DNA of 64,000 bases from positions 32,001 through 96,000 of the IMG/VR virus record IMGVR_UViG_3300023174_000048. One strand, given 5' to 3'. Within the stretch, counting starts at the first letter, position 1. Every line of letters starts with the position of its first letter. Of this stretch, positions 12,309 to 44,481 are shown in pieces. The position numbers were made by a program, and so were the translations under genes. This DNA comes from a virus. Taxonomy: Duplodnaviria; Caudoviricetes. The notes below the pieces were generated by a model, which ran no database searches, was not told the DNA's origin, and saw only the letters and a list, made by a program, of their open reading frames with translations.

Positions 12309-15300
12309 ATGGTTGACAATATCAAAATTATTGGATTAAATCCTAATCAAAGTCCAACGCCAACAAAAAGTGTTACTCCAACACCTACAAAAACACCTAC
12401 AAACACTCCAACAAATACTATAACTCCGACAAAAAGTCAAACACCAACAGCAACCCCGACAGTAACATCAACAGTAACTCCCACCAAAACAGCCACAAGA
12501 ACACCTACAAAATCTTTATGTGTATGGAATGGATATGGCCAAGTATGGTTAGCTAACTGTAATAATGAGAAAATTAATGTTCGTTGGATTAGAACTTCTA
12601 ATAATAACAACTGGACTGGAACATTTAATTATGGCTCAAACAGCATAACATCAACAATAACATATAATGCAAATTTATTAAATTTAAAAAATACAAGTTG
12701 CAAAGATTTATGGACAGTAACTTTTAATTTTAGTTGTGTTCCTTATGGTCAATCTTTAGCATATGATTTACCTCATTGTTCATGTAATAGTCCTGGAATT
12801 ATTGTAATTAGTAGTTCAGCATCTAACTGTATGTGTACTACTCCAACACCAACTCCAACAATTACAGCAACAAATACTCAAACACCAACCCCCACACCAA
12901 CAAATACTCAAACAAAAACTCCCACACCAAGCAATACGGTTACGCCAACTCCCACACCAACAACAACCCAAACAAAAACTCCAACACCAAGTAATACTGT
13001 TACGCCAACTCCCACAATTACTGTAACACGAACAAGCGGTCTGACAAAAACGCCAACCCCAACACCAACAGTAACTCCAACTACAACACAGTGCTATCCA
13101 GATGTTCCTACGGGATTATTAGCAGAATGTGGTTCATGTGAGTCTGGCTCATTAATTAATTTAAGTTGGTTCCCTCCAACATCATCTTGTTTAAATGGAT
13201 TTGACGTACAAATGTTGGTAAATAATACTATTGTATATAATACATATGTAGTCGCGGGGCAAAATAGTATTGGAATACCATTATTTTCAGACAATAGAAC
13301 TTACACATTTAGAATACGATCTTCTTCTGGCTTTGGAGGTAATAATTTTAGTCAATGGATAGAATTCCCTGGATCCTTTACTAATAATATCTGTTGCCCA
13401 ACTAGTACTCCAACTCCAACACCAACACCAACTAAAAATCTAAAGTGTAATAATTCATGGCCAAATATCCCAAGTGCGGGAGTATCGCCGGGATCTATTA
13501 TTGGATTAACATCTGGAGCTATATGGGCAGCTGTTTCTTACTGGAAATATCCATTTAGATTTATAAAAGATAGGAATGTAACAAACGACCAGAGTACTAA
13601 TGGTATAAATTTTATTATTGGAGAACAAATATTAGTAAGAGTAGCACCGTTTTATGATGTCCTTCTTGGTATTCCAGGAAATTATATAATAAATAATATT
13701 GTATATAATGAAGATTATTCAGGAATGTTTACTGCTGACACTCTATATGTCTCATGTTTAGATACTGATTTAACTTTTACAGATACTTATGTATTAAATT
13801 TTATTGATGAATCACAGCCAAATTATACTGATACCCAATATGGCAATCTGGTTGGAAATCTCTGGCCTGTTGATGTAAAATACTTCAACGAATCAGTATC
13901 ACCATCGGCTCGTAAATTTGTGGCAGCTTTTGACATTGATACCAATTATGAGGTAGCAAATCCATCACAAGGCTGGGGTGAGATTTGGCCGTCTGGTGCT
14001 GTTGGCGACATAGCAAATAGTCTATGCTCTTTACCAATACCCAAACAAAACATTATTCAAACTTCTAGACCAACTCCAGAATCACAAAATATATTTTTAA
14101 ATTATGTACAAAATCAAATCGTAAACACATTGCAATGGGGTACATTTGATGAAATAAAAAGTAATTCTCCAAATGCTAAATTTGTTCTTATTGTGGATGA
14201 TAGCGGATCTATGACATATGAGTTGGTCCAAACTGCTCTTGAATCTTTAAAAAGTATTATACTTGCAGCTGGCCTTGATTGTGTAATATTAACACTATGT
14301 AAAAACGAAAGATGGCTACAGTGGTCTGCTTACGTTTTAAATAATATAACAACTATTCATGACCCTAATTTTAAAGAAGATATGTGTAACTGTTCATTAC
14401 GCTTTGAAGATAGTGATGGATGTTCAGTTATGGTTGAATTTACCAATCCATATGATGGATCTATTATACGCCAAGATGGATCTGCCGCAAGTCCACTACA
14501 ATATTGGTCTATACATCCTATGTTATCTTCTGGAAATTGTCCAGCACCTTTAGATAGGAGAGATCCATTTGATGCTACTGGTATTACAATATTAAGTTAT
14601 AGGATATCCAATCTTATTTCTCCTGTTCCTGGCGGATCTTCCTCAGATACTGATAATATAAATATTACAGCAAAATTAAAATGTAAAAATGGTACATTTA
14701 TGCTTGATGTAGTATCTGATTATGCTTTTTGGGAAACTTGTACTGGTGGAACCAGTAGTAGTGATCATGCTTATTTATATTGGGATAATATAGAAATACC
14801 AGTTAATGGTCTTGGCTATCCAGATGGTGTTGTTAATTTGGGAGATCCAACTAGAGCTGAGACATGCTTTAATCAAGATATAGAACTCAAACCATATGAT
14901 AATATTAATATTAAATTTACTTATATTGGAACAGATATTATTCCAAATAATCCATGTGAACCATATAGAAATTCTGCAAATTTTAATAGTTCTGCTGACT
15001 GGGGTGGTCAAAATGGTAATATTACTACAGTAGGAACTAACGGTAGCCCTAGTTATTATGGTACATATGATCAAAGTGGTAATGTGAATGAATGGATAGA
15101 TGGAATAGGAGAAAAATTAGTTCGTGGAGGAGGCTATCCAGGATTATTAAGTAATCAAAACTCTGCAAATCGTGGACAACGTAGACAAACGTTTAATTCT
15201 TCGCAGGGCTCTTTAGGTTTTAGAGTAGCGTCTAGCTCACCAGGACCATCATTAGTAAAAATAGGAAATCCGGGTAATATTAATGATTCAACAGGATACG

Positions 15301-18300
15301 GGGCGGTTGCTGTTGATTACTATATCGGAAAATATGAAATTACTAATAGTGATTATATAGAATTTTTAAATGCAGTTGCTAAACAAGATACTCATTATTT
15401 ATATAACAGTCAACTTGAAACCAATATTCGAAGCGGAATAGTGCGTCAAGGAATTGATAGCAATTATTTTTATAGCGCTAAAGATAATATGTGTAATAAA
15501 CCAATTAATTTTGTGAGTTGGTTCAATGCTGCGAGATATTGCAACTGGCTGCATAATGGTAAACCAACTGGACCTCAAAATAGTAACACAACAGAAGATG
15601 GAGCATACTCTCTTTCTTCGATAGATTCTGATAATCCTATTATATATAAAAATAATAATGCTAAGTATTGGATACCAACAGAAAATGAATGGTATAAGGC
15701 AGCGTACTATAGTCCAGTAAAAAGAGGGGTTAACTCGCCAGGATATTATACCTACTCTACACAGAGCGACACAGAACCATCTTCCATATCCGCCAATAGC
15801 GTAGGAAATGGAAATGCAAGAATTAGTGATTATACATGTTCTGTTCCTACTATCACAGCCACTCCAACCCCCACATCAACAGTAACTCCAACACCAACGC
15901 AAACATTACCAGATAATTTAATGCGAATAAATAATCTATCATTCTGTGAAGACAATAGTGAAATTGGCGCGGCTATTATAGTTACTTGGAATATAATAAA
16001 TAGTGATATAAATCTTAATCAAATCTATTGTTTGGCATATCAAAAATACCCTGGAGATGATTGGACATATTATAAGTCATTAAATGGCAATATAAAATAT
16101 TATACAATAAATGGTAGTGAGATTAAAATAACTCAAAATTTTAATATGTTCGGCGGACCAGATATAATACCATATGGCATAAGATTGGTTTTGGTACCAA
16201 ATGAATTAGCTTATAATTTTGTTTTTTCATTAAACGAGACAGATACTACAGGATGTCTTGTGTCTGAAGCTTTTAATAGTTCACTATTGTGTTTTACTCC
16301 AACCCCCACATCAACAGTAACTCCAACGCCAGGATTAACTAGAACACCTACACCAACTCCAACTCCAACAAGTATGTCTAAAAGCTGTTATTCTGTTAAA
16401 GATGTTTGTTGTTGTATATATAGTACTCAAGAAGATAATAATATATTAAACGGTCTTCTTACATGGACACCCATAGATTCTACATGCAAGTTTGATCGTT
16501 ATCAGATTGCTCAATATGATTCTATTACTAATATTTGGCGAATGTTATTTAGCTTGGATCGTTCGTATAATAGTTGTCCAATACAGATATCTACTAATAT
16601 GTTATATTCTAAATTTAGAATAAAACCAATAAATATTACTTATGGTCTAGTAGGCGATTGGGTAGAATCTAAAGACATAAGTAGCACAGGACCAATATGC
16701 AATGGAGATTCATGTGACAATAAGGTTTCTGTTTATAACGTATCTGCACAATGTAACTGTGGAGTCATAGGAACAGAGTCATCAAATAATCAGTCTAGTA
16801 TATTAGATAATTCAATTTTAGTAAATTTTAAATGTAATGATAATGATATTACAGCATTCACTATAGACTATATAGCATCATCATCACAAAATTATTATCA
16901 ACCAGAAACAAAATTTTCTTTTCCTATAGAATCAAAACTACTAACTGACACTATAAGTTCTAATGTTTTAGAATTAGAATATAATAATCAATTTAAAAAA
17001 AGTATAATTACTAGTTACTCATACATTACCATTAATAATATTAAATATAATATTATATCTTCTAATATTTTTATTGATAAAGTTGTAATTAATATATCAC
17101 AAAGAGTTAACATATCTGCTGGATCAATAGTTTTTGTAGAACAATGGGCAACAGCAGGATTAATCGATCAATCTATGACTATAGAAAATTTAACTAGAAA
17201 TTCTGATAATTCTATAAGCTTTAAAGCGCGCCCTAATACCAGTAATCAGTTTATTATTTTTGATCCTTGCTTACCAACTATTAGAATTGGAGCCCTTGGT
17301 ATAGACAGAAGTATCAATGGATTCCAACAACAGCTTGATAGTCTAAAAACTATAGCAAATACAACATTATGTACTAATGACATGGCAGTAGCTGCTCCGA
17401 TAGACTTAACAATTCAATGCGATAAGATAAACAATCAATCAACAGTATTATTTAGTTGGACTCCTCCAACTGACATTAACGGAATAACAACATATCAATT
17501 GGATGCTTATAATCCAAGTTTTGGCTGGTATAGTGATACAGCTGGGTATATGGATCAGATTGTATGGAAGAATAGATATCCTATAAGAGATCCATACGAC
17601 AATACTTTTGAAATTAGTGTTATAGGAAGAAATAATATTCCCAATAAAATGGCCTTATTATCTTCTGAGTTTGGTACTAATTTAAATCTTAATTATTCAT
17701 TTAGAATAAGGTCATTAAATGAATATACTGGAGAATATAGTAGTTGGAGCAATGTGATAGCGGGTATAAATCCATTTAAATGTTGGGATCATGGAATACA
17801 CATCTCAGACATAATGGTTGGAGACGAAGGTTTTTCTGATAAGTCTAGACAATTTACTATAACTTTTGATCAAAATATAGGCTGTTGGAAAAACTTCCAA
17901 TATAAAACATATAATCCTAACACTGTCAGTTCTGCACAATGGATTGATGTAAAAACACAAACATCAGCAACAACAGATTGTTCACAATTCATTACTAATG
18001 TAATTATACCAGATGTAGATTCATCAATTTGCTTTAAGTTCTATTCTGTAGACTCTGGCGGGAATACAGTCGAAACTAGTAATGAATATTGCTTAAGTGT
18101 TCCTCCTGTTATTCCTCCAATTATTGATCCTCCTCCTCCGGTATGTCCAGATACAGTATTGAGTAGTATAAGGGTGATGTATAGTAATACTAACGGTAAA
18201 GGTCCGTGTGGAGGTGGGCATAATTGTAATAGAGCACAATTTATTTTATCTATTAATGATATTTTTATAGGAAATGTTAATCTTAATAATGCTGGTGGAG

Positions 18301-18854
18301 GCACTGACCCTGGTACACCAACAAATCCTAGTGATTTTCCAAGTTTAATTCCAATAGGATCACAAGATAGAGGAAATAAATTTAATATACCATTTGATAG
18401 TTTAGGTAATACGATGATTACTCCTATATTATTAAATAACGGATCATTGGGATATAAAATTAATTTGATTTGTGCAAATAATCAAAATATAATGATGCCA
18501 CTATGCGATTTAACTCAAGACACAGATTGGATTTATAGTGGAAGTGGTCCTAAATGTAATCCTTTATTAAATAATAATAATTTATGGATGTCTGACGGAT
18601 CAACATTTAGCACTTTCAAGTGTTGTGCTGCTCATTCAGATAGTTATACGTATGTTGGCGGATCTAATGGTTGTCATACTGGAATAGCATGGATTGAACT
18701 ATTAGACATTGATAATAATATAGTGTTAAGTTGCTGTGTTCCTGTTGATACAGTATCATACATATTAACAGATAATGCTAAGTGCTTAGATACACAAAAT
18801 AGTTTACAAAATAATACTTTTGGTCTAGAATTTTTAACTATTACAAATAATTAG
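12309..18854 (+). CDS. giant (2181 aa) Pro/Thr-repeat, Cys-rich probable virion surface protein with FN3-like, vWA-like and permuted FGE-sulfatase domains
   Basis: Several TPTPT tracts; FN3-like LSWFPP...YTFRIRS and FSWTPP...YSFRIRS; MIDAS-like DDSGSM; FGE motifs. Confidence 0.8.
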   Translation: MVDNIKIIGLNPNQSPTPTKSVTPTPTKTPTNTPTNTITPTKSQTPTATPTVTSTVTPTKTATRTPTKSLCVWNGYGQVWLANCNNEKINVRWIRTSNNNNWTGTFNYGSNSITSTITYNANLLNLKNTSCKDLWTVTFNFSCVPYGQSLAYDLPHCSCNSPGIIVISSSASNCMCTTPTPTPTITATNTQTPTPTPTNTQTKTPTPSNTVTPTPTPTTTQTKTPTPSNTVTPTPTITVTRTSGLTKTPTPTPTVTPTTTQCYPDVPTGLLAECGSCESGSLINLSWFPPTSSCLNGFDVQMLVNNTIVYNTYVVAGQNSIGIPLFSDNRTYTFRIRSSSGFGGNNFSQWIEFPGSFTNNICCPTSTPTPTPTPTKNLKCNNSWPNIPSAGVSPGSIIGLTSGAIWAAVSYWKYPFRFIKDRNVTNDQSTNGINFIIGEQILVRVAPFYDVLLGIPGNYIINNIVYNEDYSGMFTADTLYVSCLDTDLTFTDTYVLNFIDESQPNYTDTQYGNLVGNLWPVDVKYFNESVSPSARKFVAAFDIDTNYEVANPSQGWGEIWPSGAVGDIANSLCSLPIPKQNIIQTSRPTPESQNIFLNYVQNQIVNTLQWGTFDEIKSNSPNAKFVLIVDDSGSMTYELVQTALESLKSIILAAGLDCVILTLCKNERWLQWSAYVLNNITTIHDPNFKEDMCNCSLRFEDSDGCSVMVEFTNPYDGSIIRQDGSAASPLQYWSIHPMLSSGNCPAPLDRRDPFDATGITILSYRISNLISPVPGGSSSDTDNINITAKLKCKNGTFMLDVVSDYAFWETCTGGTSSSDHAYLYWDNIEIPVNGLGYPDGVVNLGDPTRAETCFNQDIELKPYDNINIKFTYIGTDIIPNNPCEPYRNSANFNSSADWGGQNGNITTVGTNGSPSYYGTYDQSGNVNEWIDGIGEKLVRGGGYPGLLSNQNSANRGQRRQTFNSSQGSLGFRVASSSPGPSLVKIGNPGNINDSTGYGAVAVDYYIGKYEITNSDYIEFLNAVAKQDTHYLYNSQLETNIRSGIVRQGIDSNYFYSAKDNMCNKPINFVSWFNAARYCNWLHNGKPTGPQNSNTTEDGAYSLSSIDSDNPIIYKNNNAKYWIPTENEWYKAAYYSPVKRGVNSPGYYTYSTQSDTEPSSISANSVGNGNARISDYTCSVPTITATPTPTSTVTPTPTQTLPDNLMRINNLSFCEDNSEIGAAIIVTWNIINSDINLNQIYCLAYQKYPGDDWTYYKSLNGNIKYYTINGSEIKITQNFNMFGGPDIIPYGIRLVLVPNELAYNFVFSLNETDTTGCLVSEAFNSSLLCFTPTPTSTVTPTPGLTRTPTPTPTPTSMSKSCYSVKDVCCCIYSTQEDNNILNGLLTWTPIDSTCKFDRYQIAQYDSITNIWRMLFSLDRSYNSCPIQISTNMLYSKFRIKPINITYGLVGDWVESKDISSTGPICNGDSCDNKVSVYNVSAQCNCGVIGTESSNNQSSILDNSILVNFKCNDNDITAFTIDYIASSSQNYYQPETKFSFPIESKLLTDTISSNVLELEYNNQFKKSIITSYSYITINNIKYNIISSNIFIDKVVINISQRVNISAGSIVFVEQWATAGLIDQSMTIENLTRNSDNSISFKARPNTSNQFIIFDPCLPTIRIGALGIDRSINGFQQQLDSLKTIANTTLCTNDMAVAAPIDLTIQCDKINNQSTVLFSWTPPTDINGITTYQLDAYNPSFGWYSDTAGYMDQIVWKNRYPIRDPYDNTFEISVIGRNNIPNKMALLSSEFGTNLNLNYSFRIRSLNEYTGEYSSWSNVIAGINPFKCWDHGIHISDIMVGDEGFSDKSRQFTITFDQNIGCWKNFQYKTYNPNTVSSAQWIDVKTQTSATTDCSQFITNVIIPDVDSSICFKFYSVDSGGNTVETSNEYCLSVPPVIPPIIDPPPPVCPDTVLSSIRVMYSNTNGKGPCGGGHNCNRAQFILSINDIFIGNVNLNNAGGGTDPGTPTNPSDFPSLIPIGSQDRGNKFNIPFDSLGNTMITPILLNNGSLGYKINLICANNQNIMMPLCDLTQDTDWIYSGSGPKCNPLLNNNNLWMSDGSTFSTFKCCAAHSDSYTYVGGSNGCHTGIAWIELLDIDNNIVLSCCVPVDTVSYILTDNAKCLDTQNSLQNNTFGLEFLTITNN
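12901..13020 (+). repeat. 60-nt tandem duplication in Pro/Thr tract
   Basis: 12901-12960 and 12961-13020 are near identical (3 mismatches over the 48-nt core). Confidence 0.85.
15861..16327 (+). repeat. identical 32-nt dispersed repeat (15861-15892 and 16296-16327)
   Basis: ACTCCAACCCCCACATCAACAGTAACTCCAAC occurs twice, flanking one about 130-aa domain. Confidence 0.8.
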
Positions 18855-18864
18855 GAATGTAATT

Positions 18865-21800
18865 ATGTCAATTTATGATAATGTGTTTTTTGAAGGTTTC
18901 AGTATACGAGATGATCAAAATATTATTCGTTTAGATCCATACTATTGGACTACTAATACATTATATACTAATGATCAATTATATGGACTAGACTCTGGCG
19001 ATTCAGGATTTATATTCCAAGCTTATGATGAAAATTTACGAGGTCAAAATTATATAACATTACAAAATTTTAAACAAATACCAAATTATTTTTCTTTGTA
19101 TTTTTGGACTAGTGGATCACTAATGCCTAAAAAAGTATTAAGAACAGTTATTAATGGCTATCCTCAATATGAATATCCTTCTTGGAATATTTTAACATTA
19201 TGGTCTAGTAGTGGTCCAGTTACACTTACTGTTGTTCCTGTTTATAGTTATGATCCTGCTGGTTGTTTAGAAAATTTATATTATAATCTTGTTGTTAATT
19301 TTGGAGCATCCACTTTTACTTATAATTTAAATCTAAATAATGAGATTAATGATCTTGCAATAGGCGGATTGAACTTTATGTCTTATATGAATGTATGGAA
19401 TTGTCAAGATAATTTTAATGCTTCAATACTTATTTTAAATTATGATATAGTTATTGAAAATAATCAACTGCGTATTTACATATCAAATCCATGGAGTAGC
19501 AGAGATAAAAAACCATTAGTAGATAGTCAAGGAAATGATTATATCAATGTAGACTCTAATAATGAAATTTTTGGAATAACATTTTATAATAATAAAGTTG
19601 CTGCTAATGAAATAGATACAGGATCACCACCTACTGTATTATATAATGTTATTGTTAATGCTCCTTTTTTAAGTAATACAATAAATAAATATCGTGTTAA
19701 AAATAATAAAGGAAATAAAGTAAAATCAAGTATTGATTCATGGCGATCTATAATAGATAAAAATAATACTAGCAATAGTAGTATTGTAAATTCATTAATT
19801 AATAAGGATACTAATTTTATTTATCCGATTGTAAAACCAGCAATATTAAAATTTGAAGATGATACTGGCACACCTGGACTAGATGGTTTAGAACCTCCAG
19901 TAGTTGGAGATGTAATTAAATCAACAAAAATTATTAATCTATTAAAGCTCAATACTCTTCCAGAAGATGAAACAACATGTTTTACTAACATATTAGATGA
20001 TGGAACTAAAATATATCCTCTTGGAGATACTAAATATTTATCTCCATCTAATGATTATTCTACACTTACTAGTATAGTTCCAAATAATCCGTCTACAAAC
20101 CTTGAATGGTCAGTAGATGATTTAAATAATATGAAATTTGGATTTATTTATCCAAGTGGGGCTTTAAAATGCTCTCCTGCTACAAGATATTCATTGTTAA
20201 ATATAATACCACAAAAAACTAAACTTAATTGGTTAGAGCCAGATTGTTTTTCTACTCTAGGAGTTAATAGTCAAGAATTTCAAGTATCATATGATTGTGG
20301 AAGCACATGGAATACAGTAAATTATGGAGTAATAAATAAAGAATTATTAAATGTTCCATATGCAGATTGGCCAAAAGCATTATATGAGCTATCTACTTTG
20401 GCTGATTATAATCCTCCATCTCCTCAAACAAATTGTGGACAAAATCCAACTCGCTACCGAATGAGATATGCTGATCTAAGCAAAAAATGTTCATATGGAG
20501 AATGGGTAGATTTCACTTTGTTCAATATTCCAACTCCCACTCCAACTAAAACACCAACTAAAACACCAACGCCAACACTAACTCCATCATCAACAAAAGT
20601 ATTAAATTGTTTTAATATAATAACACAGCCTACAGATCAATTTTTAAATCAATCAGATGGATCAACTGCAACTTTCCAAGCAACTTTAAGTTCAGAAGCG
20701 CTTAGTAAAATTGGACTTTTTCCTGATGGTTGGAACTATGGGAATAATCATATGGTATGGGAGTTCTGGTCCCCGCTAGATGGATATTGGCTCCCTGTTA
20801 ATCTTATATGTTCTGCTGTTGATGGATATTTTTCAGCAATTGATGGGGGTAATTATTATGATAACTGTAATGCTCCATATCCTCTTAATGACACAGATTC
20901 TTTAACTATAACATATAAAGCAAGTGATATTCCTCCAGGGGGCACAGAACCTTTAGTATGGAGTAATGTTGCTATCCGTAGAGGAGGTTCGCAACTTGGA
21001 AGTATATATGATATAAGTTTTAGATTAGCAATAGCTTTTAATACTCCAGTATACTTTCCAGGATATGGGAATCAGAATGTATGTTATTCAAATGTTGTTA
21101 AACTTTTAAGAAGTCCCGCTACTCCAACACCAACACCAACAAGAACACAAACACAAACACCGACTAAATATTTAACAGCAACACCAACAAAATCAACAAC
21201 TCCAACAAATAGTATAACACCTAGCATAACAAACACACCCACTATAACTTCAACACCAACAGTAACTCCAACATCAACTCAGCCAGGATCTCTTCGTAAT
21301 GCTATTATGATGCCGGATATTAATGGTATAAATGTAGAGTGGATTAGCCCATATAATGACAGCTCAACTATTGGTTTTAGAATAACTGCTATTTATGTTT
21401 ACGGAAATGGACTATCTACAAATTATGCACAACATTCATATATTGATGTTTTAATTGGAGATGCTGGTCTTAACAACTATTGTACTAATCTTATATTAGA
21501 AAAAGGATCAGATAATTGTTGGTCATATAATATTGGAGGAGTTAATGATCAAAATGTTCTTTATTTAGTAACTGTAACTCCAATAACAGCTAATGGACCG
21601 GCATATGTTAAAGGGGTTTATGCTCGTGTAACACAGAGTTTTTGGGATACTCATCCATCATATCAAGAAAGAATACATAATGTTAGTGATATTATTTATA
21701 GTAATGCAAAGGCTATGGTAAGCAATCCTTTTGGAACATGGGACTATAATAGTAGTCTCGTTAATTATTATAATCATGATATATATACAGTTCCTGGGGA

Positions 21801-23877: not shown

Positions 23878-23879
23878 TT

Positions 23880-24248
23880 ATGTTTAATTTTAGTAATCGA
23901 TCATCCAGATGGACAACAGTTAGAAAAGAACATCTTAAAAAAAATAATAGTTGTTGTGGATGTGATAAAAAAGATAAGTTAGAAGTTCATCATATTGAAC
24001 CAGTTCATGTTGATCCAAATAGAGAATTAGATCCTTCAAATTTAATAACATTATGTAAAAGTTGTCATTTTAATATTGGCCATTTAATGGATTGGAGTAG
24101 TTGGAATATTGATGTTATTAGTGATAGTAGGGTGTATTTAAATAAAGTAAAGAATCGACCTTATCAAATAAAGGTTCAAAGCAATGAAAGCTCTAATTAT
24201 TTTCATCGTTGCTTGTGTTGGATACTCAATAGCATTAGCAGGAACTAG
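23880..24248 (+). CDS. HNH endonuclease
   Basis: CCGC, EVHHIEP, NLITLCKSCH. Confidence 0.85.
   Translation: MFNFSNRSSRWTTVRKEHLKKNNSCCGCDKKDKLEVHHIEPVHVDPNRELDPSNLITLCKSCHFNIGHLMDWSSWNIDVISDSRVYLNKVKNRPYQIKVQSNESSNYFHRCLCWILNSISRN
24131..24138 (+). promoter_or_regulatory. GGTGTATT motif
   Basis: Inside the HNH 3' end, about 45 nt before ORF 24184; may be a coding coincidence. Confidence 0.35.
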
Positions 24249-31888: not shown

Positions 31889-31983
31889 AGTTAAGTATGT
31901 ATTATAGTATATCCACCCGCTCTGCATAATATATAATCATAAATCGTAGTATGGTCAAGGCCAAAAAATCTTATCATGGTCGG

Positions 31984-32716: not shown

Positions 32717-32717
32717 A

Positions 32718-33290: not shown

Positions 33291-33294
33291 GTTT

Positions 33295-35374: not shown

Positions 35375-35750
35375 GAGAATACCAACTTCTAATGGAGAAA
35401 TATTAGATAAATTTTCTATACTAGAATTAAAATATAATAAAATTTTAGATCCAAATAAAATAAATAATATAAAAAATGAATTATCTTATTTAAAAGATAT
35501 TTCTTATAATATTATTAAAAGTTATAATATAGTTAATCTTTATAATGAATTAAAACAAGTTAATGAGCGATTATGGAATATAGAAGATAATATTAGAATC
35601 AAAGAAAATAAACAAGAATTTGATAATGAATTTATAGAATTAGCTAGAAATGTATACAAAACTAATGATCAACGAGCAAATATAAAAAAACTTATAAATG
35701 AAATATCGGATTCAGAGATCGTAGAAGAAAAATCCTATGAAAAATATTGA
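35367..35750 (+). CDS. helical protein typical of phage glycan clusters (DUF6165-like)
   Basis: S.GEILDK.SILELK, VNERLWNIED.IR, LARNVYKTNDQR, EEKSY. Confidence 0.65.
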   Translation: MSERIPTSNGEILDKFSILELKYNKILDPNKINNIKNELSYLKDISYNIIKSYNIVNLYNELKQVNERLWNIEDNIRIKENKQEFDNEFIELARNVYKTNDQRANIKKLINEISDSEIVEEKSYEKY

Positions 35751-36525
35751 TTATATAGAATTAAATAAATTATCTCATCTTCATGATGAACAAAATATCT
35801 TTTTTTGTAAGACAGATTATATCTTAGAAGATTTTGAAACAATACGAAACATAAATCATCCGGTCACTTTAATCACGGGAAACTCTGATTATGCAATTAT
35901 AGATGATATAGTTTCTTTGGCTCCTAAGAATATCATTGATTGGTATGCACAGAACGCAGTTTCCAAGTCTAAAATTCTACATCCTCTACCAATAGGATTA
36001 GAAAATAAACTACCATCAGTTAGACAAGGACATGGTATAGGATATTTTGACAGAGCATCAGAGAAGGAGAATCTGCTAAATGAAAATAATATATCTAATT
36101 TAGATAGTAAATTTATTTATGCTAATTTTAATGTTAATACCAACTATAGTCATAGATCAATAGTTAAACAATATTGTATACAATCGTCTTTTATTGATTG
36201 GCAAGAACCTAATTTAACTCTGTCAGATTTTTTTAATACAATACGAGATTATAAGATGGTAGTTTGTCCAGCAGGAAATGGTATAGATACACACAGATTA
36301 TGGGAAGTTTTATATAGTAATAGGGTGCCAATTACCCTAGTTACTGGAGACTTTAAGATATATGAACTATATAAAAAATTACCAATAATTCTATTAAATC
36401 ATATTGATCAATTGCTTGATAAAAATTTTATAACACAAGAATATAATAGGTGTTTGTCTCAGAACTGGGATAAATCATTATTAGATGTAAACTCATGGAT
36501 TAAAATTATTCAAAATAAAGACTAA
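35737..36525 (+). CDS. exostosin-like (GT47-type) glycosyltransferase
   Basis: MVVCPAGNGIDTHRLWEVLYSNRVPI. Confidence 0.65.
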   Translation: MKNIDYIELNKLSHLHDEQNIFFCKTDYILEDFETIRNINHPVTLITGNSDYAIIDDIVSLAPKNIIDWYAQNAVSKSKILHPLPIGLENKLPSVRQGHGIGYFDRASEKENLLNENNISNLDSKFIYANFNVNTNYSHRSIVKQYCIQSSFIDWQEPNLTLSDFFNTIRDYKMVVCPAGNGIDTHRLWEVLYSNRVPITLVTGDFKIYELYKKLPIILLNHIDQLLDKNFITQEYNRCLSQNWDKSLLDVNSWIKIIQNKD

Positions 36526-36529
36526 CATT

Positions 36530-37375
36530 ATGAGTAAAAATATATTAATATTAGGTAATGGGTTTATTGGTAAGAACCTATACGCATATTTTGTTTCTAA
36601 ATATAATACAACTATTACTAGTAAAAAAGATATAGATATCACAAAAATCGAAACCGTTAGAAACTATCTGTCTGATAAAAATTTTGATTATGTTATTTAC
36701 TCTATCGGAATAAAAGATATTGCTGAATGTGAGAAATATCCAGATAAAGCATATGCTATTAACTCTAACGGTGTTGCTAATGTTATCAAATCTCTAAATA
36801 AAGATACCAAATTTATTTATATATCTACAGACTATGTATTTGATGGTAACGCAGGAGGATATTCAGAAAACTCTGTATCTCTACCGTCAACCACTTACGG
36901 ACAATCCAAACTAATAGGAGAACAACACTCACTCCAGCACAATAACTCTATTGTTGTTAGAACATCCGGAGTATATGGAGAAAATTGTCTTTGGCTTAAA
37001 AACTTATTAATTTCTTTGTCAGAGAAGAAAGAAACTGTATGTTTTTCTGATGTATATAATACTCCAACATATGCTATCAATTTAGCAGAAATGATTGACG
37101 ATATTATTAATATTAATTTTGTAGGAGTTATCCATTTAAGCGGGAATACAAGAAATAATAGATATGAACTATACTCATCTGTGGCTACTATATTTGAGAG
37201 GGATCTTTCTCTTTTGTCTAGCGGACTATCAGATGGAAAATTTCCTAAAGATATTTCATTAAATAATAATTTGTATAAACAAATAACTAAAAAAATACCA
37301 GATTCTGTAACTAGCGGACTAACAAGACTAAAAAATGAACATCAATATATTGATCCCGTCAACTTCATCAATTAA
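36530..37375 (+). CDS. rmlD: dTDP-4-dehydrorhamnose reductase
   Basis: ILILGNGFIG, YISTDYVFDG, YGQSK. Confidence 0.85.
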   Translation: MSKNILILGNGFIGKNLYAYFVSKYNTTITSKKDIDITKIETVRNYLSDKNFDYVIYSIGIKDIAECEKYPDKAYAINSNGVANVIKSLNKDTKFIYISTDYVFDGNAGGYSENSVSLPSTTYGQSKLIGEQHSLQHNNSIVVRTSGVYGENCLWLKNLLISLSEKKETVCFSDVYNTPTYAINLAEMIDDIININFVGVIHLSGNTRNNRYELYSSVATIFERDLSLLSSGLSDGKFPKDISLNNNLYKQITKKIPDSVTSGLTRLKNEHQYIDPVNFIN

Positions 37376-38228
37376 TACTATTAATAATGGAGCAAATGTT
37401 CAAGGGGATGAACTAGTTGCTCGATCCTGGGCAAAATATCTACAAAAAGATACAAGAGTTTCTAATGTAGATATTAATGGATTTGGCATATATGATGTTT
37501 CTATATCCTTTAGTCCATTAGTAAACCAACAAATGACAGGATATAAAGTACTATATCTACAAAATGTTTTTCCAAAACCCACTTGGCCAGGTACTGTTGA
37601 AGTTTATCATCAAATAAAAAATAACTATGATAGTTTTATATTTCCATCTGAAGGACTAATGAACAACTGTGGCGAAGGGCTTGTATGTCAATTTGCTGTT
37701 GATCCTGATTTATTTTTTCCTAAATCTATAAACGATAATTTATCTCATAACTTGTGTTTTGTAGGAAATAATATTAGAGATCAACAAACATCAGAAAAAT
37801 ATTTATTATGTGCTAAAGATAAAGGATTGGTTATATACGGTAATCCAGCAGGATGGAACTCTCCACTATGCAAAGGAAAGATAAGCATAGATGACGAAGC
37901 CACACTATACTCTTCTTCAAAAATCTGTTTAAATGCTCATCTTACTGAACACTTAGATTATGGCTCATATAATTTTCGTATATTTAATATTCTAGCATGT
38001 AAAGGTTTTATTATTTCTGACAGATCTCAATTCTTAGAAACAGAATTTAATAACTGCATGGAATTTACAGACGGAAATGATGATCTTCTTTCAAAGATTG
38101 ATTATTATTTAAATAATCCAGAAGAGACAAATAAATATAGAGAATATGGTTATAATCATATTTTATCTAAACATACTTTCAAACACAGAATGTCAGATCT
38201 ATTAAACTGGCTAGGAATAAAATTATGA
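37335..38228 (+). CDS. CgeB-like GT-B glycosyltransferase
   Basis: LCFVGN, LYSSSKICLN, NFRIFNILACKGFIISD, HTFKHR. Confidence 0.75.
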   Translation: MNINILIPSTSSINTINNGANVQGDELVARSWAKYLQKDTRVSNVDINGFGIYDVSISFSPLVNQQMTGYKVLYLQNVFPKPTWPGTVEVYHQIKNNYDSFIFPSEGLMNNCGEGLVCQFAVDPDLFFPKSINDNLSHNLCFVGNNIRDQQTSEKYLLCAKDKGLVIYGNPAGWNSPLCKGKISIDDEATLYSSSKICLNAHLTEHLDYGSYNFRIFNILACKGFIISDRSQFLETEFNNCMEFTDGNDDLLSKIDYYLNNPEETNKYREYGYNHILSKHTFKHRMSDLLNWLGIKL

Positions 38229-39604
38229 AAATATTATTTGCAAATATACCAAATGTAAAATATGTTAATGGACAGATCCACACTGGGCCAAATGCAGGAT
38301 CACGATGGCCTTGGACTAATCCCGGAGGACATTTTCATGGTTATGCACCTTTCCCATTTTGGCTAGGATATGCTGCAAAATATGTACAACATCATGGTTT
38401 TGAAACGTATTTTTATGATGGCGTTGCACTAAAACATGCTGATTTAGAAATTACTAAAAAAGTTATTTATGATTTAAAACCAGATATAATTTTTTATGAT
38501 ATATCTACTCCAACTTTTAAACTAAATAACGATATAGCATTATGGTTTAAACAAAATATTGGATGTCGAAATGTATATTGTGGACCGCACATGAAAACCT
38601 ATGCCAATGAATGTATAGAGTTAGATCATGTCGATCATTGTATTGTTGGAGAATACGACATACCAGCATTAGACATTTGTCAAAAACTAGATAATGCTAA
38701 AGATATCTACAGATTTGAACATTTGTCAAATATCGATACTCTGCCCAATGGAGACAATTTTTTACCATATAGACCATTAGAATATATTCAAAATTATTAT
38801 GAACCAACAATGAACACTCCAATGATTCAATTAACTGTGAGTGCTTCTCGTGGATGTCCATTTAAATGCACATATTGTCAATGGCCAAATGTTATAAATA
38901 ATGGTAAGTATAGAGCAAGATCAGCAGAAATGGTTGTTGATGAAATTCAACAAATGAAAAATATTTTAGGAGATAATCTAAGAAGTATACTTTTTGATGA
39001 TGATACATGGAATCTTGGACATAATAGAATATCTAAAATTTGTGATGGACTTAAAAACTTTAACATGCCATGGACAATGATGGGCAGAATAGACACAAGT
39101 AAGCCTGAACTCTATGATAAAATGGTAGATTCTGGTTGTGTTGGAATGAGATTTGGAATTGAAACATTTAATCAGGAACTATCTGATAATGTTAAAAAAC
39201 ATATGAATACCAAAACTGCTTATGATAATCTAAAATATTTAGTTACTAGATTTTCAAATATGGAATTTCATTTTACTACTATGAAAAATTTTCCAGGAGA
39301 AAAAGCAGGATCATGGGAAAAAGATCAGGCAATTTTAAAAGATCTTCAAGAAATTGGCAGAAAAAATAACAATACTGTTCATTGGCAAATTAGTGATTGC
39401 ATACCGTTCCCCGGAACAGAATTATGGGAAGAATTAGTACAATTAGGAAGAGGAGAAACTCTCAGAGATTTCAGCTTGTATGATGGTAGTCCAGAACATA
39501 ACGGAGCACTAGAAAAAACTGTTGGATGGCTAGGAGAAAATTATAAACCTAAATACTCAGAGTATTCAAAAGATGGTAGTCCAACAAATTTGCCTAATAA
39601 TTAA
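38225..39604 (+). CDS. radical SAM enzyme, probably B12-binding class
   Basis: SRGCPFKCTYC (CX3CX2C), FDDDT, GIET, PFPGT; N-terminal cobalamin-binding-like domain. Confidence 0.85.
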   Translation: MKILFANIPNVKYVNGQIHTGPNAGSRWPWTNPGGHFHGYAPFPFWLGYAAKYVQHHGFETYFYDGVALKHADLEITKKVIYDLKPDIIFYDISTPTFKLNNDIALWFKQNIGCRNVYCGPHMKTYANECIELDHVDHCIVGEYDIPALDICQKLDNAKDIYRFEHLSNIDTLPNGDNFLPYRPLEYIQNYYEPTMNTPMIQLTVSASRGCPFKCTYCQWPNVINNGKYRARSAEMVVDEIQQMKNILGDNLRSILFDDDTWNLGHNRISKICDGLKNFNMPWTMMGRIDTSKPELYDKMVDSGCVGMRFGIETFNQELSDNVKKHMNTKTAYDNLKYLVTRFSNMEFHFTTMKNFPGEKAGSWEKDQAILKDLQEIGRKNNNTVHWQISDCIPFPGTELWEELVQLGRGETLRDFSLYDGSPEHNGALEKTVGWLGENYKPKYSEYSKDGSPTNLPNN

Positions 39605-39606
39605 TT

Positions 39607-40173
39607 ATGGATCATATATATAATCAACCTCAATTTGGTGAAGACTGGTTCGATTATCAGGATGTTTATTCTGAATTTGCACGAGACTGTCCAGATAACG
39701 GACATATTATAGAAATAGGATCATGGAAAGGTAAAAGTTCAGTATTCATGGCTGTTGAAATTATAAATTCTAATAAAAAAATTAAATTTGATTGTATAGA
39801 TACTTGGCTAGGAACCGCTAATGATCAATGTCATAAAGATATTATTAAAAATATAAATAATAAATTATTTGAAGTATTTTTACAAAATATTAAACCAGTA
39901 AATAATATTATAACTCCTATTAAAAAAACATCAGAAGAAGCCAGTTTATTGTATGAAGATGAATCAGTAGATATAGTATTTATTGATGCCGATCATTCAG
40001 AAGAAGCTGTAAAAAAAGATATTAACTTATGGCTACCAAAAGTCAAAAAAAATGGTATACTAGCTGGTCACGATTATTTTTCATGGCCAGGAGTACAAAA
40101 AGCGGTTAATGAACTTATAGGTAATAAAAATATAAAAACTAAAACATCTTGCTGGATACATCATAAATTATGA
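39607..40173 (+). CDS. class I SAM methyltransferase (Methyltransf_24-like)
   Basis: IEIGSWKGKS, VFIDADH, GILAGHDY. Confidence 0.85.
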   Translation: MDHIYNQPQFGEDWFDYQDVYSEFARDCPDNGHIIEIGSWKGKSSVFMAVEIINSNKKIKFDCIDTWLGTANDQCHKDIIKNINNKLFEVFLQNIKPVNNIITPIKKTSEEASLLYEDESVDIVFIDADHSEEAVKKDINLWLPKVKKNGILAGHDYFSWPGVQKAVNELIGNKNIKTKTSCWIHHKL

Positions 40174-40694
40174 ATCATACATTTATTGTTAATAAATTAA
40201 TTTCTGATATAATTTTAATTAAAACGCAAATATATGAAGATCATAGAGGAACTTTATATGAGATATATAATAAAGAACTATTCATTAAAAATAAAATACC
40301 AGAAATAGTACAAGAGAAATCCTCATTCTCAAAATATAAAGTATTAAGAGGATTACACTATCAAAAAGAACCCCATGGACAAGGGAAAATAGTTAGATGC
40401 AATAAAGGTAAAATTTTTGATGTTGCTGTTGATATTAGAGAAAATTCAACAACATATAAACAATGGGTTTCGTATGAATTATCAGAATCTAATAAAGATA
40501 TGGTATATATACCACCAGGATTTGCTCATGGAATATTAGTATTAAGCGAGGATGGTGCAGACTTTAGCTACTTTACAACAGAAAAACACTATCCAGAATA
40601 TGAAACAGTAATATCATACGATGATCCAACAATAAATATAGATTGGCCAATTAAAGATGTAATTCTATCAAATAAGGACAAAGGAAACAAATGA
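40170..40694 (+). CDS. rmlC: dTDP-4-dehydrorhamnose 3,5-epimerase
   Basis: DHRG, VLRGLHYQ, QGKIVRC, FDVAVDIR, YIPPGFAHG, LSNKD. Confidence 0.92.
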   Translation: MNHTFIVNKLISDIILIKTQIYEDHRGTLYEIYNKELFIKNKIPEIVQEKSSFSKYKVLRGLHYQKEPHGQGKIVRCNKGKIFDVAVDIRENSTTYKQWVSYELSESNKDMVYIPPGFAHGILVLSEDGADFSYFTTEKHYPEYETVISYDDPTINIDWPIKDVILSNKDKGNK

Positions 40695-41428
40695 AAAATT
40701 ATAGATGCTCTTCTTTTTGTTCCTTATATAAAGGTGAAAAATTTGTTCAAGGATATCTGGAAGATATGTTAAAACAATCTATCTTTGATGATATTGAATT
40801 TATCTTTTTAGACTGTGCTTCTCCAGAAAATGAAAAAGACTTTATTTTACCATTAACTGAAGAATATTCAAATATAAAGTATCATAGACTAGATAGCGAT
40901 CCTGGCCTATATGCAGCATGGAATATAGCTATTAAAATGTGCTCATCAAATTTAATAGGAAACTGGAATATTGACGATAGAAAAAATATAAATAGTTTTG
41001 AAATACTGGTTAAGTGTTTTGATAGAGATCCAGATTTAGAAGTAGCATACGGACTAACATATGTATCAACAATCGCTAATGAAAAATATGAAAATAATGA
41101 TTACTCTAATTTTTATCCGTGCTTACCCCATTCATTAAAAAACTTATTAATGAATAACAGTCCCCATTGTATGCCGTTATGGAAGAAAAATTTACACGAT
41201 AGATTCGGATACTTTGACGAATCGTATAAGACGGCTTCTGATGGAGATATGTGGTTGCGTTGTTGCGTCGGAGGTGCTAAGATACAGTTGGTCAATCACC
41301 CTGTTGGCCTGTACTACCATAACCCAAAGGGTAGATCGACTGATCAAAAAACGTTGTTGGAGATGGTTGCTGAAGTTCAGCAAATGAGAAAAAAATACAT
41401 ACCCTATTTGGAGAATGACAATGGATAG
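40691..41428 (+). CDS. GT2 family glycosyltransferase
   Basis: LDCAS, GLYAAWNIAI, NIDDR, GYFDESY..ASDGDMWLR. Confidence 0.8.
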   Translation: MKNYRCSSFCSLYKGEKFVQGYLEDMLKQSIFDDIEFIFLDCASPENEKDFILPLTEEYSNIKYHRLDSDPGLYAAWNIAIKMCSSNLIGNWNIDDRKNINSFEILVKCFDRDPDLEVAYGLTYVSTIANEKYENNDYSNFYPCLPHSLKNLLMNNSPHCMPLWKKNLHDRFGYFDESYKTASDGDMWLRCCVGGAKIQLVNHPVGLYYHNPKGRSTDQKTLLEMVAEVQQMRKKYIPYLENDNG

Positions 41429-41564
41429 TTTTATTATTTTATGTTTGGCAATATCCCTAATTGGTGGAATAATTTCTGGAATCAAAGAAATGACAGATAG
41501 ATCAGGGTACTCTGTTAAATCATCAAAAAATATATTTACATTTCTGTTTTGCGATAAATATTAA
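41421..41564 (+). CDS. 47-aa membrane peptide (not in ORF track)
   Basis: MDSFIILCLAISLIGGIISGIKEM...; fills the gap, GGAG SD, stop overlaps the next ATG. Confidence 0.55.
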   Translation: MDSFIILCLAISLIGGIISGIKEMTDRSGYSVKSSKNIFTFLFCDKY

Positions 41565-42094
41565 TGGAAAGACTAAAAAATCAAAGAGTTTATCTGGCTG
41601 GAGCAATGGATAGAGTTCCAGATAGAGGTTCAACATGGCGAGATAATATCACTCCGTTTCTTAATGAACTTGGCATAGTAGTTTTTAATCCTATTAGTAA
41701 ACCAACAGATATAGGATTAGAAGATAAAGACACTCATGCTATAAAAACCAAGCTCAAAGAAAAAGCACGATACGACGAATTAACTGCCATGATGAAAACT
41801 ATTCGTTCTGTTGATCTGAGGCTTGTAGACATTAGTGATTTTCTCATAGTTAATTTGGACCTTAATACTCATCCATGCGGAACTCTTGAAGAAATTTTCT
41901 GGGCCAATCGTCAAAAGAAACCAATAATTATTCATATGGTTCAAGGAAAGAATCATACTCCAGATTGGCTATTTGGAACAATACCGCACCAGATGATATT
42001 CTCTACATGGGATGAAATCAAGAGTTATTTACAACACATTAATACCTCTGAAAATATAGATTCTCATAAAAGATGGTATTTCTTCTCGGTGTAA
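41564..42094 (+). CDS. nucleoside 2-deoxyribosyltransferase-like / nucleotide N-hydrolase
   Basis: VYLAG, WR, VFNP, DL..VD.SD, GTLEE. Confidence 0.8.
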   Translation: MERLKNQRVYLAGAMDRVPDRGSTWRDNITPFLNELGIVVFNPISKPTDIGLEDKDTHAIKTKLKEKARYDELTAMMKTIRSVDLRLVDISDFLIVNLDLNTHPCGTLEEIFWANRQKKPIIIHMVQGKNHTPDWLFGTIPHQMIFSTWDEIKSYLQHINTSENIDSHKRWYFFSV

Positions 42095-42095
42095 A

Positions 42096-42299
42096 ATGCC
42101 CAAATACTATGTTAAATCAGGTCAAATAAAATTTATTGTAGATTGTACCGATCATATATGCGCTATATTAGCTGCTTTGTCTCACTATAAAGGAAAAGGT
42201 GTTGTTACTGGGCCAAAAATTTGTGTTAGTGAACAAGGATTTGAAGATTTTAAAAAATGGAAATGCTATGATACTGACAAGTACCTAAAAGGAATATAA
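42096..42299 (+). CDS. hypothetical protein
   Basis: Tightly packed ORF between two recognisable genes. Confidence 0.6.
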   Translation: MPKYYVKSGQIKFIVDCTDHICAILAALSHYKGKGVVTGPKICVSEQGFEDFKKWKCYDTDKYLKGI

Positions 42300-43426
42300 T
42301 GCAAAAAATTATAAATGAAATTAAATTAGACTTTGATGATGTTCTAATTAGGCCCAAAAGATCAACTCTCAATAGTCGATCAGAAGTTTGTATCCAAAGA
42401 GAATTTAAATTTAAATATTCTCCACGAAAATTACTAGCAGTTCCAATAATGGTTGCCAATATGGATACTGTTGGAACTTTTGAGATGGCGAAATCATTAG
42501 GAAAAAATCAAGCCATAGTATGTTTACATAAGCATTATAAGATTAATGAATATGTTGCTTTTTATACTGATCCTAGTATTGTAAATAAAAATCTTGCATT
42601 TTATTCTATCGGCACAAGCCAGACAGATCTAGAAAAATTAACTGAAGTATTCAACCAAATTAAAAAATTCAACTATCCTACGCCTAATATATGCTTAGAT
42701 GTTGCAAACGGATATACAGAACAATTTGTTAAAATTGCTCGTAAAATAAGAAATTTATATCCAGAGTCTGTTATCATGGCTGGCAATGTGGTAACCCCAG
42801 AAATGACAGAAGAACTAATTATTCATGGTCAGGTCGATATAGTTAAAGTCGGCATAGGATCTGGCAGTGTTTGTACCACTCGTTTAAAAACTGGCGTAGG
42901 ATACCCTCAGTTGAGTGCTGTGATGGAATGTACGGACGCTGCTCATGGCCTTGGTGGGCACGTTTGTTCAGACGGAGGATGCAAAGTAATTGGAGATGTG
43001 TGTAAAGCATTTGGTGCAAATGGTGATTTCGTTATGCTAGGAAGCATATTTGCTGGCACAGACGAGTGTGAAGGAGAATGGAAATATGAATATTTAGTTG
43101 AAGCAGGATCATCTGCTCCCGGATTTTGGCAACCAATAGATCCAGAAAATAATAATATAAAAAGAAAAATATCTTTGCAATACTATGGAATGAGCAGTTT
43201 AAAAGCTATGGATAAACATCATAATGGAGTTGCAGACTATAGAACAGCAGAAGGTAAGTGCGTTACTGTTCCATATAAAGGAATGGCAGAAGAAGTACTT
43301 CAAGACATTTATGGAGGAATACGAAGTGCTTGCACTTATATAGGCGCTAGTAAAATAAAAGACTTTGGTAAGAAAACAACATTTATACAAGTCAACAATA
43401 CTCATAATAAGATATACGAAAAATGA
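42299..43426 (+). CDS. guaC: GMP reductase
   Basis: LDFDDVLIRPKRSTL.SR, ANMDTVGT, LDVANGY, KVGIGSGSVCTTR, SDGGC, YGMSS, RTAEGK, GIRSACTYIGA. Confidence 0.92.
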   Translation: MQKIINEIKLDFDDVLIRPKRSTLNSRSEVCIQREFKFKYSPRKLLAVPIMVANMDTVGTFEMAKSLGKNQAIVCLHKHYKINEYVAFYTDPSIVNKNLAFYSIGTSQTDLEKLTEVFNQIKKFNYPTPNICLDVANGYTEQFVKIARKIRNLYPESVIMAGNVVTPEMTEELIIHGQVDIVKVGIGSGSVCTTRLKTGVGYPQLSAVMECTDAAHGLGGHVCSDGGCKVIGDVCKAFGANGDFVMLGSIFAGTDECEGEWKYEYLVEAGSSAPGFWQPIDPENNNIKRKISLQYYGMSSLKAMDKHHNGVADYRTAEGKCVTVPYKGMAEEVLQDIYGGIRSACTYIGASKIKDFGKKTTFIQVNNTHNKIYEK

Positions 43427-44481
43427 AAATAAATTATTCAAGTCCAGTTAATAACACCGGCTACGGATTAGCATCAATTAATATACTGCGAGAACTATCA
43501 AAGATAGTAGACGTAACTTACTACCCCATAGGCCAGCCATCAGTTAATAATCAAGATGATCATGACTTTATACTTTCTTTATTAAAGAAGAGGATGAGTC
43601 CTGATATTAATGCTGTTAATTTTAAGATCTGGCATCAATTTGATTTACTAGATCATATTGGACGAGGAAAATATGTTGCCTATCCATTTTTTGAGTTGGA
43701 CACATTTAATGAATATGAAAAAATTAATTTAAAAGTTCCAGACAGTATATGCGTTAGTAGCAAATGGGGCCAGGAAGTTCTGCTTAAGAATGGAATAGAT
43801 TCTGAATCATTCGTAGTGCCATTAGGTGTTAATAGAAATATTTTTAATAACGACATCAAAAGAACTAGATCAGATGATAAATATGTTTTTCTAAATATAG
43901 GCAAATGGGAAGTTCGTAAAGGACACGATATTTTATTCTCATTATTTAATGAGGCTTTTCCAGATCAAAAAGATGTTGAACTATGGATATTAGCATCAGA
44001 AAAAACCAATTCGTATTCATCTGCTGATGAACTAAAACAATGGAAAAATATGTATGGTTCAGATAGAGTAAAATTATTTGATGGATTTGAAACTCAAGAA
44101 GAAATAGCTCAATTAATAGCAGATGCTGATTGTGGATTATATCCATCAAGAGCAGAAGGATGGAATCTTGAACTATTAGAAACCATGAGTATGGGAAAAC
44201 CAACCATAGCAACCAACTATTCTGCACACACAGAGTTTTGCACACCAGAAAATTGTTATTTGGTCAATATTGACGAGACAGAAAAAGCTTTCGACGGAAA
44301 AGCATTTCAAGGCCAGGGGAATTGGGCTAAATTAGGCAATAGTCAGATAGAAAATATTATTGATCATATGAGATTTGTTTATAATAATAGAATAAATACC
44401 AATCCTCACGGAATAGAAACGGCTAAAAAGTATTCTTGGGAGAATGCGGCTCAACAACTTGTAAGGTGTATTCCTAGGTAG
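43423..44481 (+). CDS. GT4-type (GT-B) glycosyltransferase
   Basis: FLNIGKWEVRKG, PSRAEGWNLELLETMSMGKP, YSWENAA. Confidence 0.85.
   Translation: MKINYSSPVNNTGYGLASINILRELSKIVDVTYYPIGQPSVNNQDDHDFILSLLKKRMSPDINAVNFKIWHQFDLLDHIGRGKYVAYPFFELDTFNEYEKINLKVPDSICVSSKWGQEVLLKNGIDSESFVVPLGVNRNIFNNDIKRTRSDDKYVFLNIGKWEVRKGHDILFSLFNEAFPDQKDVELWILASEKTNSYSSADELKQWKNMYGSDRVKLFDGFETQEEIAQLIADADCGLYPSRAEGWNLELLETMSMGKPTIATNYSAHTEFCTPENCYLVNIDETEKAFDGKAFQGQGNWAKLGNSQIENIIDHMRFVYNNRINTNPHGIETAKKYSWENAAQQLVRCIPR
44465..44472 (+). promoter_or_regulatory. GGTGTATT motif
   Basis: About 10 nt before the AGGAG SD of ORF 44492. Confidence 0.5.

Follow-up and report, generated by a model that had tools for sequence, protein, structure and literature searches.

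A GT60-family glycosyltransferase, an HtrL-like partner and giant Pro/Thr-tract proteins suggest a protein O-glycosylation module in a freshwater T4-like phage

To characterize a set of glycan genes in an uncultivated virus, we analyzed a 64,000-nucleotide stretch of DNA (positions 32,001 to 96,000 of IMG/VR record IMGVR_UViG_3300023174_000048; hereafter the window), whose source is a freshwater T4-like phage, with rIIA/B, a clamp loader, a ribonucleotide reductase (RNR) and PhoH as markers. Positions 12309–44481 hold two giant proteins with Pro/Thr (PT) tracts, a cassette containing a GT60-family glycosyltransferase (GT) and an HtrL_YibB-like partner, and a separate island of glycan genes. 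We propose, with a probability of roughly 55%, that the phage carries a cytoplasmic protein O-glycosylation module with the two giants as its most obvious candidate acceptors. An initial annotation of this DNA had already suggested a mucin-type O-glycosylation system, and our analysis partly supports that interpretation as a whole.

The open reading frame (ORF) at 28975–30264 on the minus strand encodes a 429-residue protein that belongs to GT60 by both family and fold. It matches PF11397 with an E-value of 1.6e-71 and 242.1 bits against a cut-off of 21, and it also matches phrog_24687 at 2e-174. The three motifs that had first pointed to GT60 are all present, with IASYRD at residue 21, QLDSH at 104 and GEE at 217. 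Across 47 homologues the DSH (DxH) motif D106-S107-H108 is at least 90% conserved, and E218, E219 and H243 are invariant, His243 being the putative metal ligand. The AlphaFold2 model built with these homologues (mean predicted local distance difference test score, pLDDT, 94.4) shows a GT-A catalytic domain together with a beta-rich C-terminal domain (residues ∼340–429) that is additional to the Pfam domain. The best match among Swiss-Prot models is Dictyostelium Gnt1, the hydroxyproline GlcNAc-transferase that modifies Skp1 (Q8T1C6; E = 2.1e-24, TM-score 0.63, 23% identity), so that profile and structure comparisons both bear out the original assignment; polypeptide N-acetylgalactosaminyltransferases (ppGalNAc-Ts) follow at ∼1e-9. 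The best 40 fold matches in the PDB are all polypeptide GalNAc-transferases, and sequence searches of the PDB with the protein and with its 47-sequence profile returned nothing usable. Both characterized GT60 enzymes named in a review act on polypeptides (PMC6939170). We predict that the phage protein is an initiating polypeptide O-N-acetylhexosamine (O-HexNAc) transferase.

This enzyme family is large. A word-index search recovered more than 7200 homologues, many of them 75–86% identical, on contigs of up to 232 kb, and 4749 clusters at 50% identity in a representative library match GT60. The nearest relative of the window is a 131-kb IMG/VR contig (G001) that is ∼95% identical over most of the window and whose GT60 protein is 97% identical to the one described here. 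Tandem duplicates of GT60 occur at two further loci (L088 and L227) and at bacterial loci L237, L241 and L299, and single proteins of 1600–2460 residues in the representative library (P0125–P0127) contain up to four GT60 domains.

Next to GT60, and forming the other end of the cassette, lies a gene for an HtrL_YibB-like protein of 563 residues (30236–31927, minus strand), which matches PF09612 over residues 17–269 with 53.9 bits (cut-off 24.1). Its structural model (pLDDT 88) consists of two tandem GT-A domains, the second of which bears a near-invariant E-D-D motif at 399–401. The best PDB matches are the two-domain GTs LH3, LARGE1, chondroitin polymerase K4CP, heparosan synthase 2 and mimivirus R699. 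The HtrL-like gene is present at 72 of the 80 viral loci retrieved with the GT60 protein as query, and it accompanies GT60 in 29 of 80 bacterial loci; the window's own giants turn up in only 1–2 of the 80 viral loci. The conserved GT60 and HtrL-like pair is a new finding that formed no part of the initial annotation.

Between the two genes lie 1–10 ORFs that vary from locus to locus, 291 in total, which fall into 70 families. Family representatives from this cassette interior match GT25, GT34, GT10, PLOD-type GT, GT2-like and FkbM methyltransferase sequences. Within the clade to which the window belongs, the gene order is HtrL, GT60, variable ORFs. The three variable ORFs of the window (298, 274 and 313 residues; 26315–28973, minus strand, in the same orientation as GT60) have no Pfam or PHROG match; the 313-residue ORF belongs to the commonest cassette family, with 33 members at 30 loci. 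All three presumably encode extending or modifying enzymes. A 118-residue ORF with a signal-peptide-like N-terminus (25829–26185) is the last of this minus-strand block. At one sister-clade locus (L074:1-7730), a 1447-residue fusion of FkbM methyltransferase, GT32-like, GT4 and GT9 parts adjoins a PT protein and GT60, and is followed by a sulfotransferase and further methyltransferases, which hint at sulfated or methylated glycans.

We defined a PT tract by a fixed rule, a 12-residue window with at least three Pro, at least three Thr and a combined Pro, Thr and Ser content of at least 75%. Two adjacent plus-strand genes satisfy it many times over, confirming that two giants with numerous Thr/Pro tracts lie here. 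Protein 1 (2181 residues, 12309–18854) has six tracts covering 198 residues (nt 12348–12461, 12831–13022, 13032–13094, 13389–13442, 15840–15911 and 16290–16388), and protein 2 (1670 residues, 18865–23877) has eight covering 228 (nt 20524–20601, 21106–21165, 21235–21291, 21820–21984, 21994–22125, 22132–22218, 22297–22365 and 22387–22422). Thr makes up 42–43% and Pro 23–24% of the residues inside the tracts, compared with 7.5–7.8% and 5–6% in the rest of the same proteins. No other ORF of at least 100 residues in the window contains a tract by this rule.

The tracts link Cys-containing globular modules. Protein 1 includes an FGE-sulfatase/C-lectin-like domain (Pfam, residues 1003–1137) and a vWA-like DDSGSM motif, while the C-terminal 440 residues of protein 2 gave weak, sub-threshold leads to BNR/DUF6242-like beta-propellers in an Atlas feature search. 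An uncharacterized family, phrog_15511, matches both giants within their Thr/Pro-rich stretches; beyond this family and the FGE-sulfatase-like domain, PHROG and Pfam provided no function for the giants or for the other PT ORFs of G001. Among 50,697 cultured-phage records, tblastn found nothing similar to the globular regions of either giant. Neither giant has a hydrophobic N-terminus in a simple hydropathy scan, in agreement with the earlier statement that both lack signal peptides. G001 contains five PT ORFs, and its copy of protein 1 has 1406 residues, with a 2.4-kb insertion/deletion; the stretch 13427–15927 of the window, within protein 1, has no counterpart there. A third large PT-tract ORF of G001 encodes 1226 residues (91101–94781).

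The cassette recurs beside PT proteins. In a sister clade, whose GT60 is 63–67% identical to that of the window, the gene order is PT protein, GT60, variable ORFs, HtrL, PT protein. After dereplication of the viral loci at 95% GT60 identity, 22 of 84 ORFs directly flanking the cassette were PT-rich, compared with 19/626 other ORFs of the same loci and none of the 178 ORFs in the cassette interior (Fisher p = 1e-11; 4e-5 when the test was repeated with dereplication at 85%). A reverse sample of 45 viral records, chosen solely by a (TP)6 DNA pattern, contained PF11397 in eight, and in 6/12 among the records of at least 60 kb. The nearest PT tract lay within ∼5 kb of GT60 in six of these eight records, often in the adjacent ORF. 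The association between GT60 and PT tracts is local and positional, tied to the flanks of the cassette, and is not distance-based.

Outside these clades, the GT60 and HtrL-like pair is found in the Xanthomonas jumbo phages XacN1 and Xoo-sp13; in XacN1, ORF334 is the GT60 homologue (48% identity) and ORF330 the HtrL-like homologue (39.5% identity over 554 residues). Giants of 3313 residues (XacN1, ORF325) and 3245 residues (Xoo-sp13), each with two PT tracts near the C-terminus, come after the baseplate wedge genes and adjoin the block that runs from GT60 to HtrL. XacN1 resembles the window in having both enzymes in one block beside a giant PT-tract protein, and differs from it in being a jumbo phage of another lineage, with a carbamoyltransferase in its cassette. 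XacN1 virions contain at least two glycoproteins detected by Schiff (PAS) staining, for which phage GTs were suggested as the makers; the authors connected these glycoproteins with neither PT tracts nor the GT60 family (PMC5852040).

GT60 also lies inside the type VI secretion system (T6SS) cluster at 14 Burkholderiaceae loci, including L267:1-21014 (Paraburkholderia ferrariae) and L252 (Ralstonia sp. 25C). The gene order is ClpV, TssE, TssF, TssG, GT60, Rhs, VgrG, TssM, with a fimbrial-like gene also on the TssG side of GT60. At all 14 loci the VgrG tail carries long (TP)n, PPSEE-, EPSDE- or PPTE-type repeats, and among the matches listed for a 6-Mb Ralstonia genome, every (TP)6 falls at a single site, a VgrG tail that starts ∼1 kb from GT60. 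The location of GT60 inside the T6SS, combined with repeat tails on 14 of 14 VgrGs, suggests glycosylated T6SS spikes. Sphingomonad, Gemmatimonad and Lewinellaceae contigs likewise encode PT proteins immediately upstream of GT60. The Lewinellaceae example, from a metagenome-assembled genome (L231:7997-9751, minus strand), is a 584-residue protein directly upstream of a GT60–HtrL pair that combines a twin-arginine-like signal, a Ser/Thr/Pro repeat region of ∼300 residues and a C-terminal domain like those of the type IX secretion system; it is a possible exported acceptor in Bacteroidota.

A second group of glycan genes forms a plus-strand island at 33295–41428. It comprises a weak GT-A-like ORF (33939–34718), an RmlD-like reductase (36530–37375), a Glyco_trans_1_2 protein (37335–38228), a B12-binding radical SAM enzyme (38225–39604), a methyltransferase (39607–40173), RmlC (40170–40694) and a GT2 enzyme (40691–41428), along with ORFs of 215 and 219 residues, a DUF6165 gene and a weak RXYLT1_C-like ORF. 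A GT4-type (GT-B) glycosyltransferase at 43423–44481, also on the plus strand, ends the island. The GuaC/IMPDH-like gene at 41564–43426 and an NDT-like gene in the same interval belong to nucleotide metabolism and not to glycan synthesis. The estimate of about 14 glycan genes with which the region was first described was generous: nine genes match above or near the Pfam cut-off (HtrL-like, GT60, RmlD-like, Glyco_trans_1_2, B12 radical SAM, methyltransferase, RmlC, GT2 and GT4), two match weakly (Mannosyl_trans3 and RXYLT1_C) and several have no match. Nor could the fucosyl- and rhamnosyltransferases proposed at that stage be confirmed for the window, which has RmlC- and RmlD-like genes; a GT10 fucosyltransferase-like ORF occurs in the cassettes of relatives. 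The segment 35272–40691, which spans the RmlD, GT, radical SAM, methyltransferase and RmlC genes, is replaced in the otherwise ∼95%-identical G001. Together with the absence of 13427–15927 from protein 1 of that contig, this replacement indicates modular exchange of candidate acceptor and glycan genes.

In the mechanism we propose, the GT60 enzyme would move the first HexNAc from a UDP-sugar onto Thr, rather than onto hydroxyproline, within the Thr/Pro tracts of phage proteins. The two giants would be the most obvious acceptors, although the genome encodes further proteins with PT tracts. The HtrL-like dual GT-A enzyme and the fast-changing enzymes of the cassette and island (GTs, methyltransferases and those of 6-deoxyhexose synthesis) would then extend this primer to yield a strain-specific glycan, and lysis would release the products, which are probably fibre-like components of the virion. 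The glycan might serve as a shield or adhesin, as the initial annotation envisaged, and its first sugar might be GlcNAc. The analysis establishes the family and fold of both enzymes, the layout of the cassette and its repeated placement beside PT-tract proteins; the identity of the acceptor and of the sugar, the sequence of the reactions, the place of the products in the virion and their biological role are inferred. The cytoplasmic setting, which had been part of the original proposal, agrees with the predicted properties of the cassette proteins, which look cytoplasmic: no transmembrane (TM) segment is predicted in any cassette or island protein, and no lipid-carrier machinery was found among these genes. 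A hydroxyproline (Skp1-type) route was considered and rejected. PF13640, the sole oxygenase family searched, was not found in G001 or in two other relatives (G047 and G049), and its one match in a further relative (G048) lies far from the cassette; since no prolyl-4-hydroxylase-type oxygenase turned up in G001, this route is unlikely.

Several observations weigh against the giants as acceptors, and most of them also serve the alternative that we rate highest, in which the targets of the cassette are other phage proteins (those of capsid, tail or decoration, by analogy with actinobacteriophages) and the PT tracts serve as bare flexible linkers whose sole connection to it is a shared accessory region of the genome. 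The cassette of the window clade is flanked by HtrL and small ORFs rather than by PT proteins, and the giants lie 5 kb away on the opposite strand, behind genes for an S8 protease, a trypsin-like protein and an HNH endonuclease. Six loci (L018, L019, L021, L028, L030 and L032) keep the cassette with no giants at that site, and several clade members run from HNH directly to an actin-like gene with no giants between; three complete relatives that have no adjacent giants still contain (TP)4 tracts elsewhere. PT tracts are also common in the absence of GT60, which is missing from 37 of the 45 viral records picked by (TP)6, and across 121 Burkholderiaceae genomes (TP)8-coding DNA is not enriched with GT60 (2/5 carriers, 31/116 non-carriers). 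Such tracts thus occur independently of GT60, perhaps simply as linkers.

A distance control gave PT tracts within 5 kb in 14/43 cases and at 5–10 kb in 14/34, that is, no enrichment and no decay over 10 kb, and the Fisher p-values overstate the case because related loci are phylogenetically non-independent. Co-occurrence of GT60 and PT proteins across related phages is seen at the flanks of the cassette, not as an effect of distance, and several clade members have no giants beside it. Similarity of the giants to any known virion protein was undetectable in PHROG and among cultured phages, which counts against a place for them in the particle. Two results nevertheless speak against bare linkers and a different set of acceptors: the excess of PT-rich ORFs is specific to the cassette flanks (22/84 versus 19/626), and the pairing recurs in such different settings as T6SS VgrG tails, the XacN1 giant, and Sphingomonad and Gemmatimonad loci. 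With both sides considered, we regard modification of other phage proteins as unlikely and retain the giants as the most obvious candidate acceptors.

We also consider it rather improbable that these genes remodel a glycan of the host envelope during infection, whether lipopolysaccharide (LPS), capsule or some other lipid-linked sugar, a change that could, for instance, prevent superinfection or keep progeny from adsorbing. Such a role would fit the description of HtrL_YibB in Pfam as a bacterial family and the position of its namesake gene beside the LPS-core genes of E. coli. It would also fit the matches of cassette relatives to GT25 ("LPS biosynthesis protein") and GT9, the presence of a PAP2 phosphatase nearby (45606–46262), and modular swapping like that of O-antigen loci. 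Against this, no initiating phosphoglycosyl transferase, flippase, polymerase or ligase was found, cassette and island proteins have no predicted TM segments, and every one of the nearest relatives of the GT60 enzyme modifies polypeptides. Glycosylation of DNA, which a T4-like phage might suggest given that phage GTs are often assumed to modify DNA, is very improbable, because no PF00303 gene (thymidylate synthase/dNMP hydroxymethylase) was found in G001 or three complete relatives, a search that was positive in 10/14 control genomes, and because the family and fold are those of a polypeptide-type GT-A enzyme; a complement of more than 10 glycan genes that includes methyltransferases and deoxyhexose synthesis also suits an oligosaccharide better than a modified base.

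The proposed protein O-glycosylation module can be set beside three known systems. Mucin-type members of GT60 act on Thr in Thr/Pro-rich repeats that resemble the tracts described here. Like protist Gnt1, the phage enzyme combines PF11397, a GT-A fold and a DxH motif, and as Gnt1 is cytoplasmic, so the phage protein has neither a TM nor a signal segment. It differs from the protist enzymes in its phage or bacterial host, its extra beta-rich C-terminal domain (∼340–429), the lack of a prolyl hydroxylase partner and an identity to Gnt1 of just 23%. The phage enzyme also has an HtrL-like partner of two GT-A domains and a variable GT cassette, a pairing that, to our knowledge, has not been described for the protist enzymes.

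The animal ppGalNAc-Ts of GT27 provide the nearest solved structures and a comparable scheme, HexNAc initiation on Thr/Ser of Pro-rich tandem repeats followed by stepwise extension. The phage protein belongs to another CAZy family, shares ∼12% identity with them, has no ricin-type lectin domain by sequence and no membrane anchor, and operates where there is no Golgi. Judged by its primary structure, in which Pfam detects only PF11397 and no TM segment is predicted, it would work like a GT27 enzyme but is not a member of that family, and its reaction would be cytoplasmic.

Another parallel comes from mycobacteriophages, in which phage GTs modify structural proteins in the host cytoplasm, with glycans on the C-termini of capsid and tail-tube proteins (Freeman et al. 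2023, as cited in PMC12619734). Set against that summary, the system described here has giant multi-domain PT-tract proteins as candidate acceptors and GT60 as initiator, and the likeness is one of setting. Our literature search found no description of GT60/PF11397 in phages, of its pairing with PT proteins or of VgrG glycosylation.

The remainder of the window is consistent with a T4-like phage. Its G+C content is ∼32%, and besides rIIA and rIIB (3793–7419) it encodes a clamp-loader-like AAA+ protein, a ClpP-type prohead protease, a class II RNR, PhoH and a sigma factor, as well as one tRNA-Leu (1596–1672, anticodon TAA). A megablast search with 8.5 kb of the window found no DNA-level match to cultured phages, and no cultured-phage homologue of the rIIA protein exceeds 36% identity. 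PHROGs gave no capsid or tail genes for this phage, and PHROG and Pfam searches assigned no function to ORFs of the structural region. The block at 23880–25837, which encodes the HNH endonuclease, a trypsin-like protease with a signal-peptide-like N-terminus and an S8 subtilase, is kept beside the cassette in 21–23 related loci, with or without giants. Beyond the part corresponding to the window, G001 has an ORF of 5642 residues (G001:C1:105203-122131, minus strand), and further ORFs of that contig encode 2576, 2140 and 1152 residues; none of these four, nor the 1226-residue PT-tract ORF, has a PHROG annotation.

More tentatively, GT60 and its HtrL-like partner could constitute a widespread prokaryotic and phage "cytoplasmic mucin-type" module that acts on Pro/Thr(Ser) tracts of proteins which exit without passing unfolded through the Sec pore, such as phage fibres at lysis, T6SS VgrG spikes, and substrates of the twin-arginine or type I secretion pathways. 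The swappable GT cassette would then evolve like an O-antigen locus and produce a strain-specific glycan brush, a generalization that we consider possible. Cultured systems in which these ideas could be tested directly already exist in XacN1, Xoo-sp13 and Burkholderiaceae isolates. If the proposed module is real, a very abundant group of aquatic phages would make mucin-like glycoproteins with an enzyme family characterized so far only in protists. Phage protein glycosylation would thereby gain a second example, different in mechanism from that of the mycobacteriophages. It would explain the hypervariable GT islands of these phages, give a testable function to the Pro/Thr "linkers" of phage fibres and T6SS spikes, and offer simple, soluble enzymes with which PT tags could be O-glycosylated in a site-directed way.

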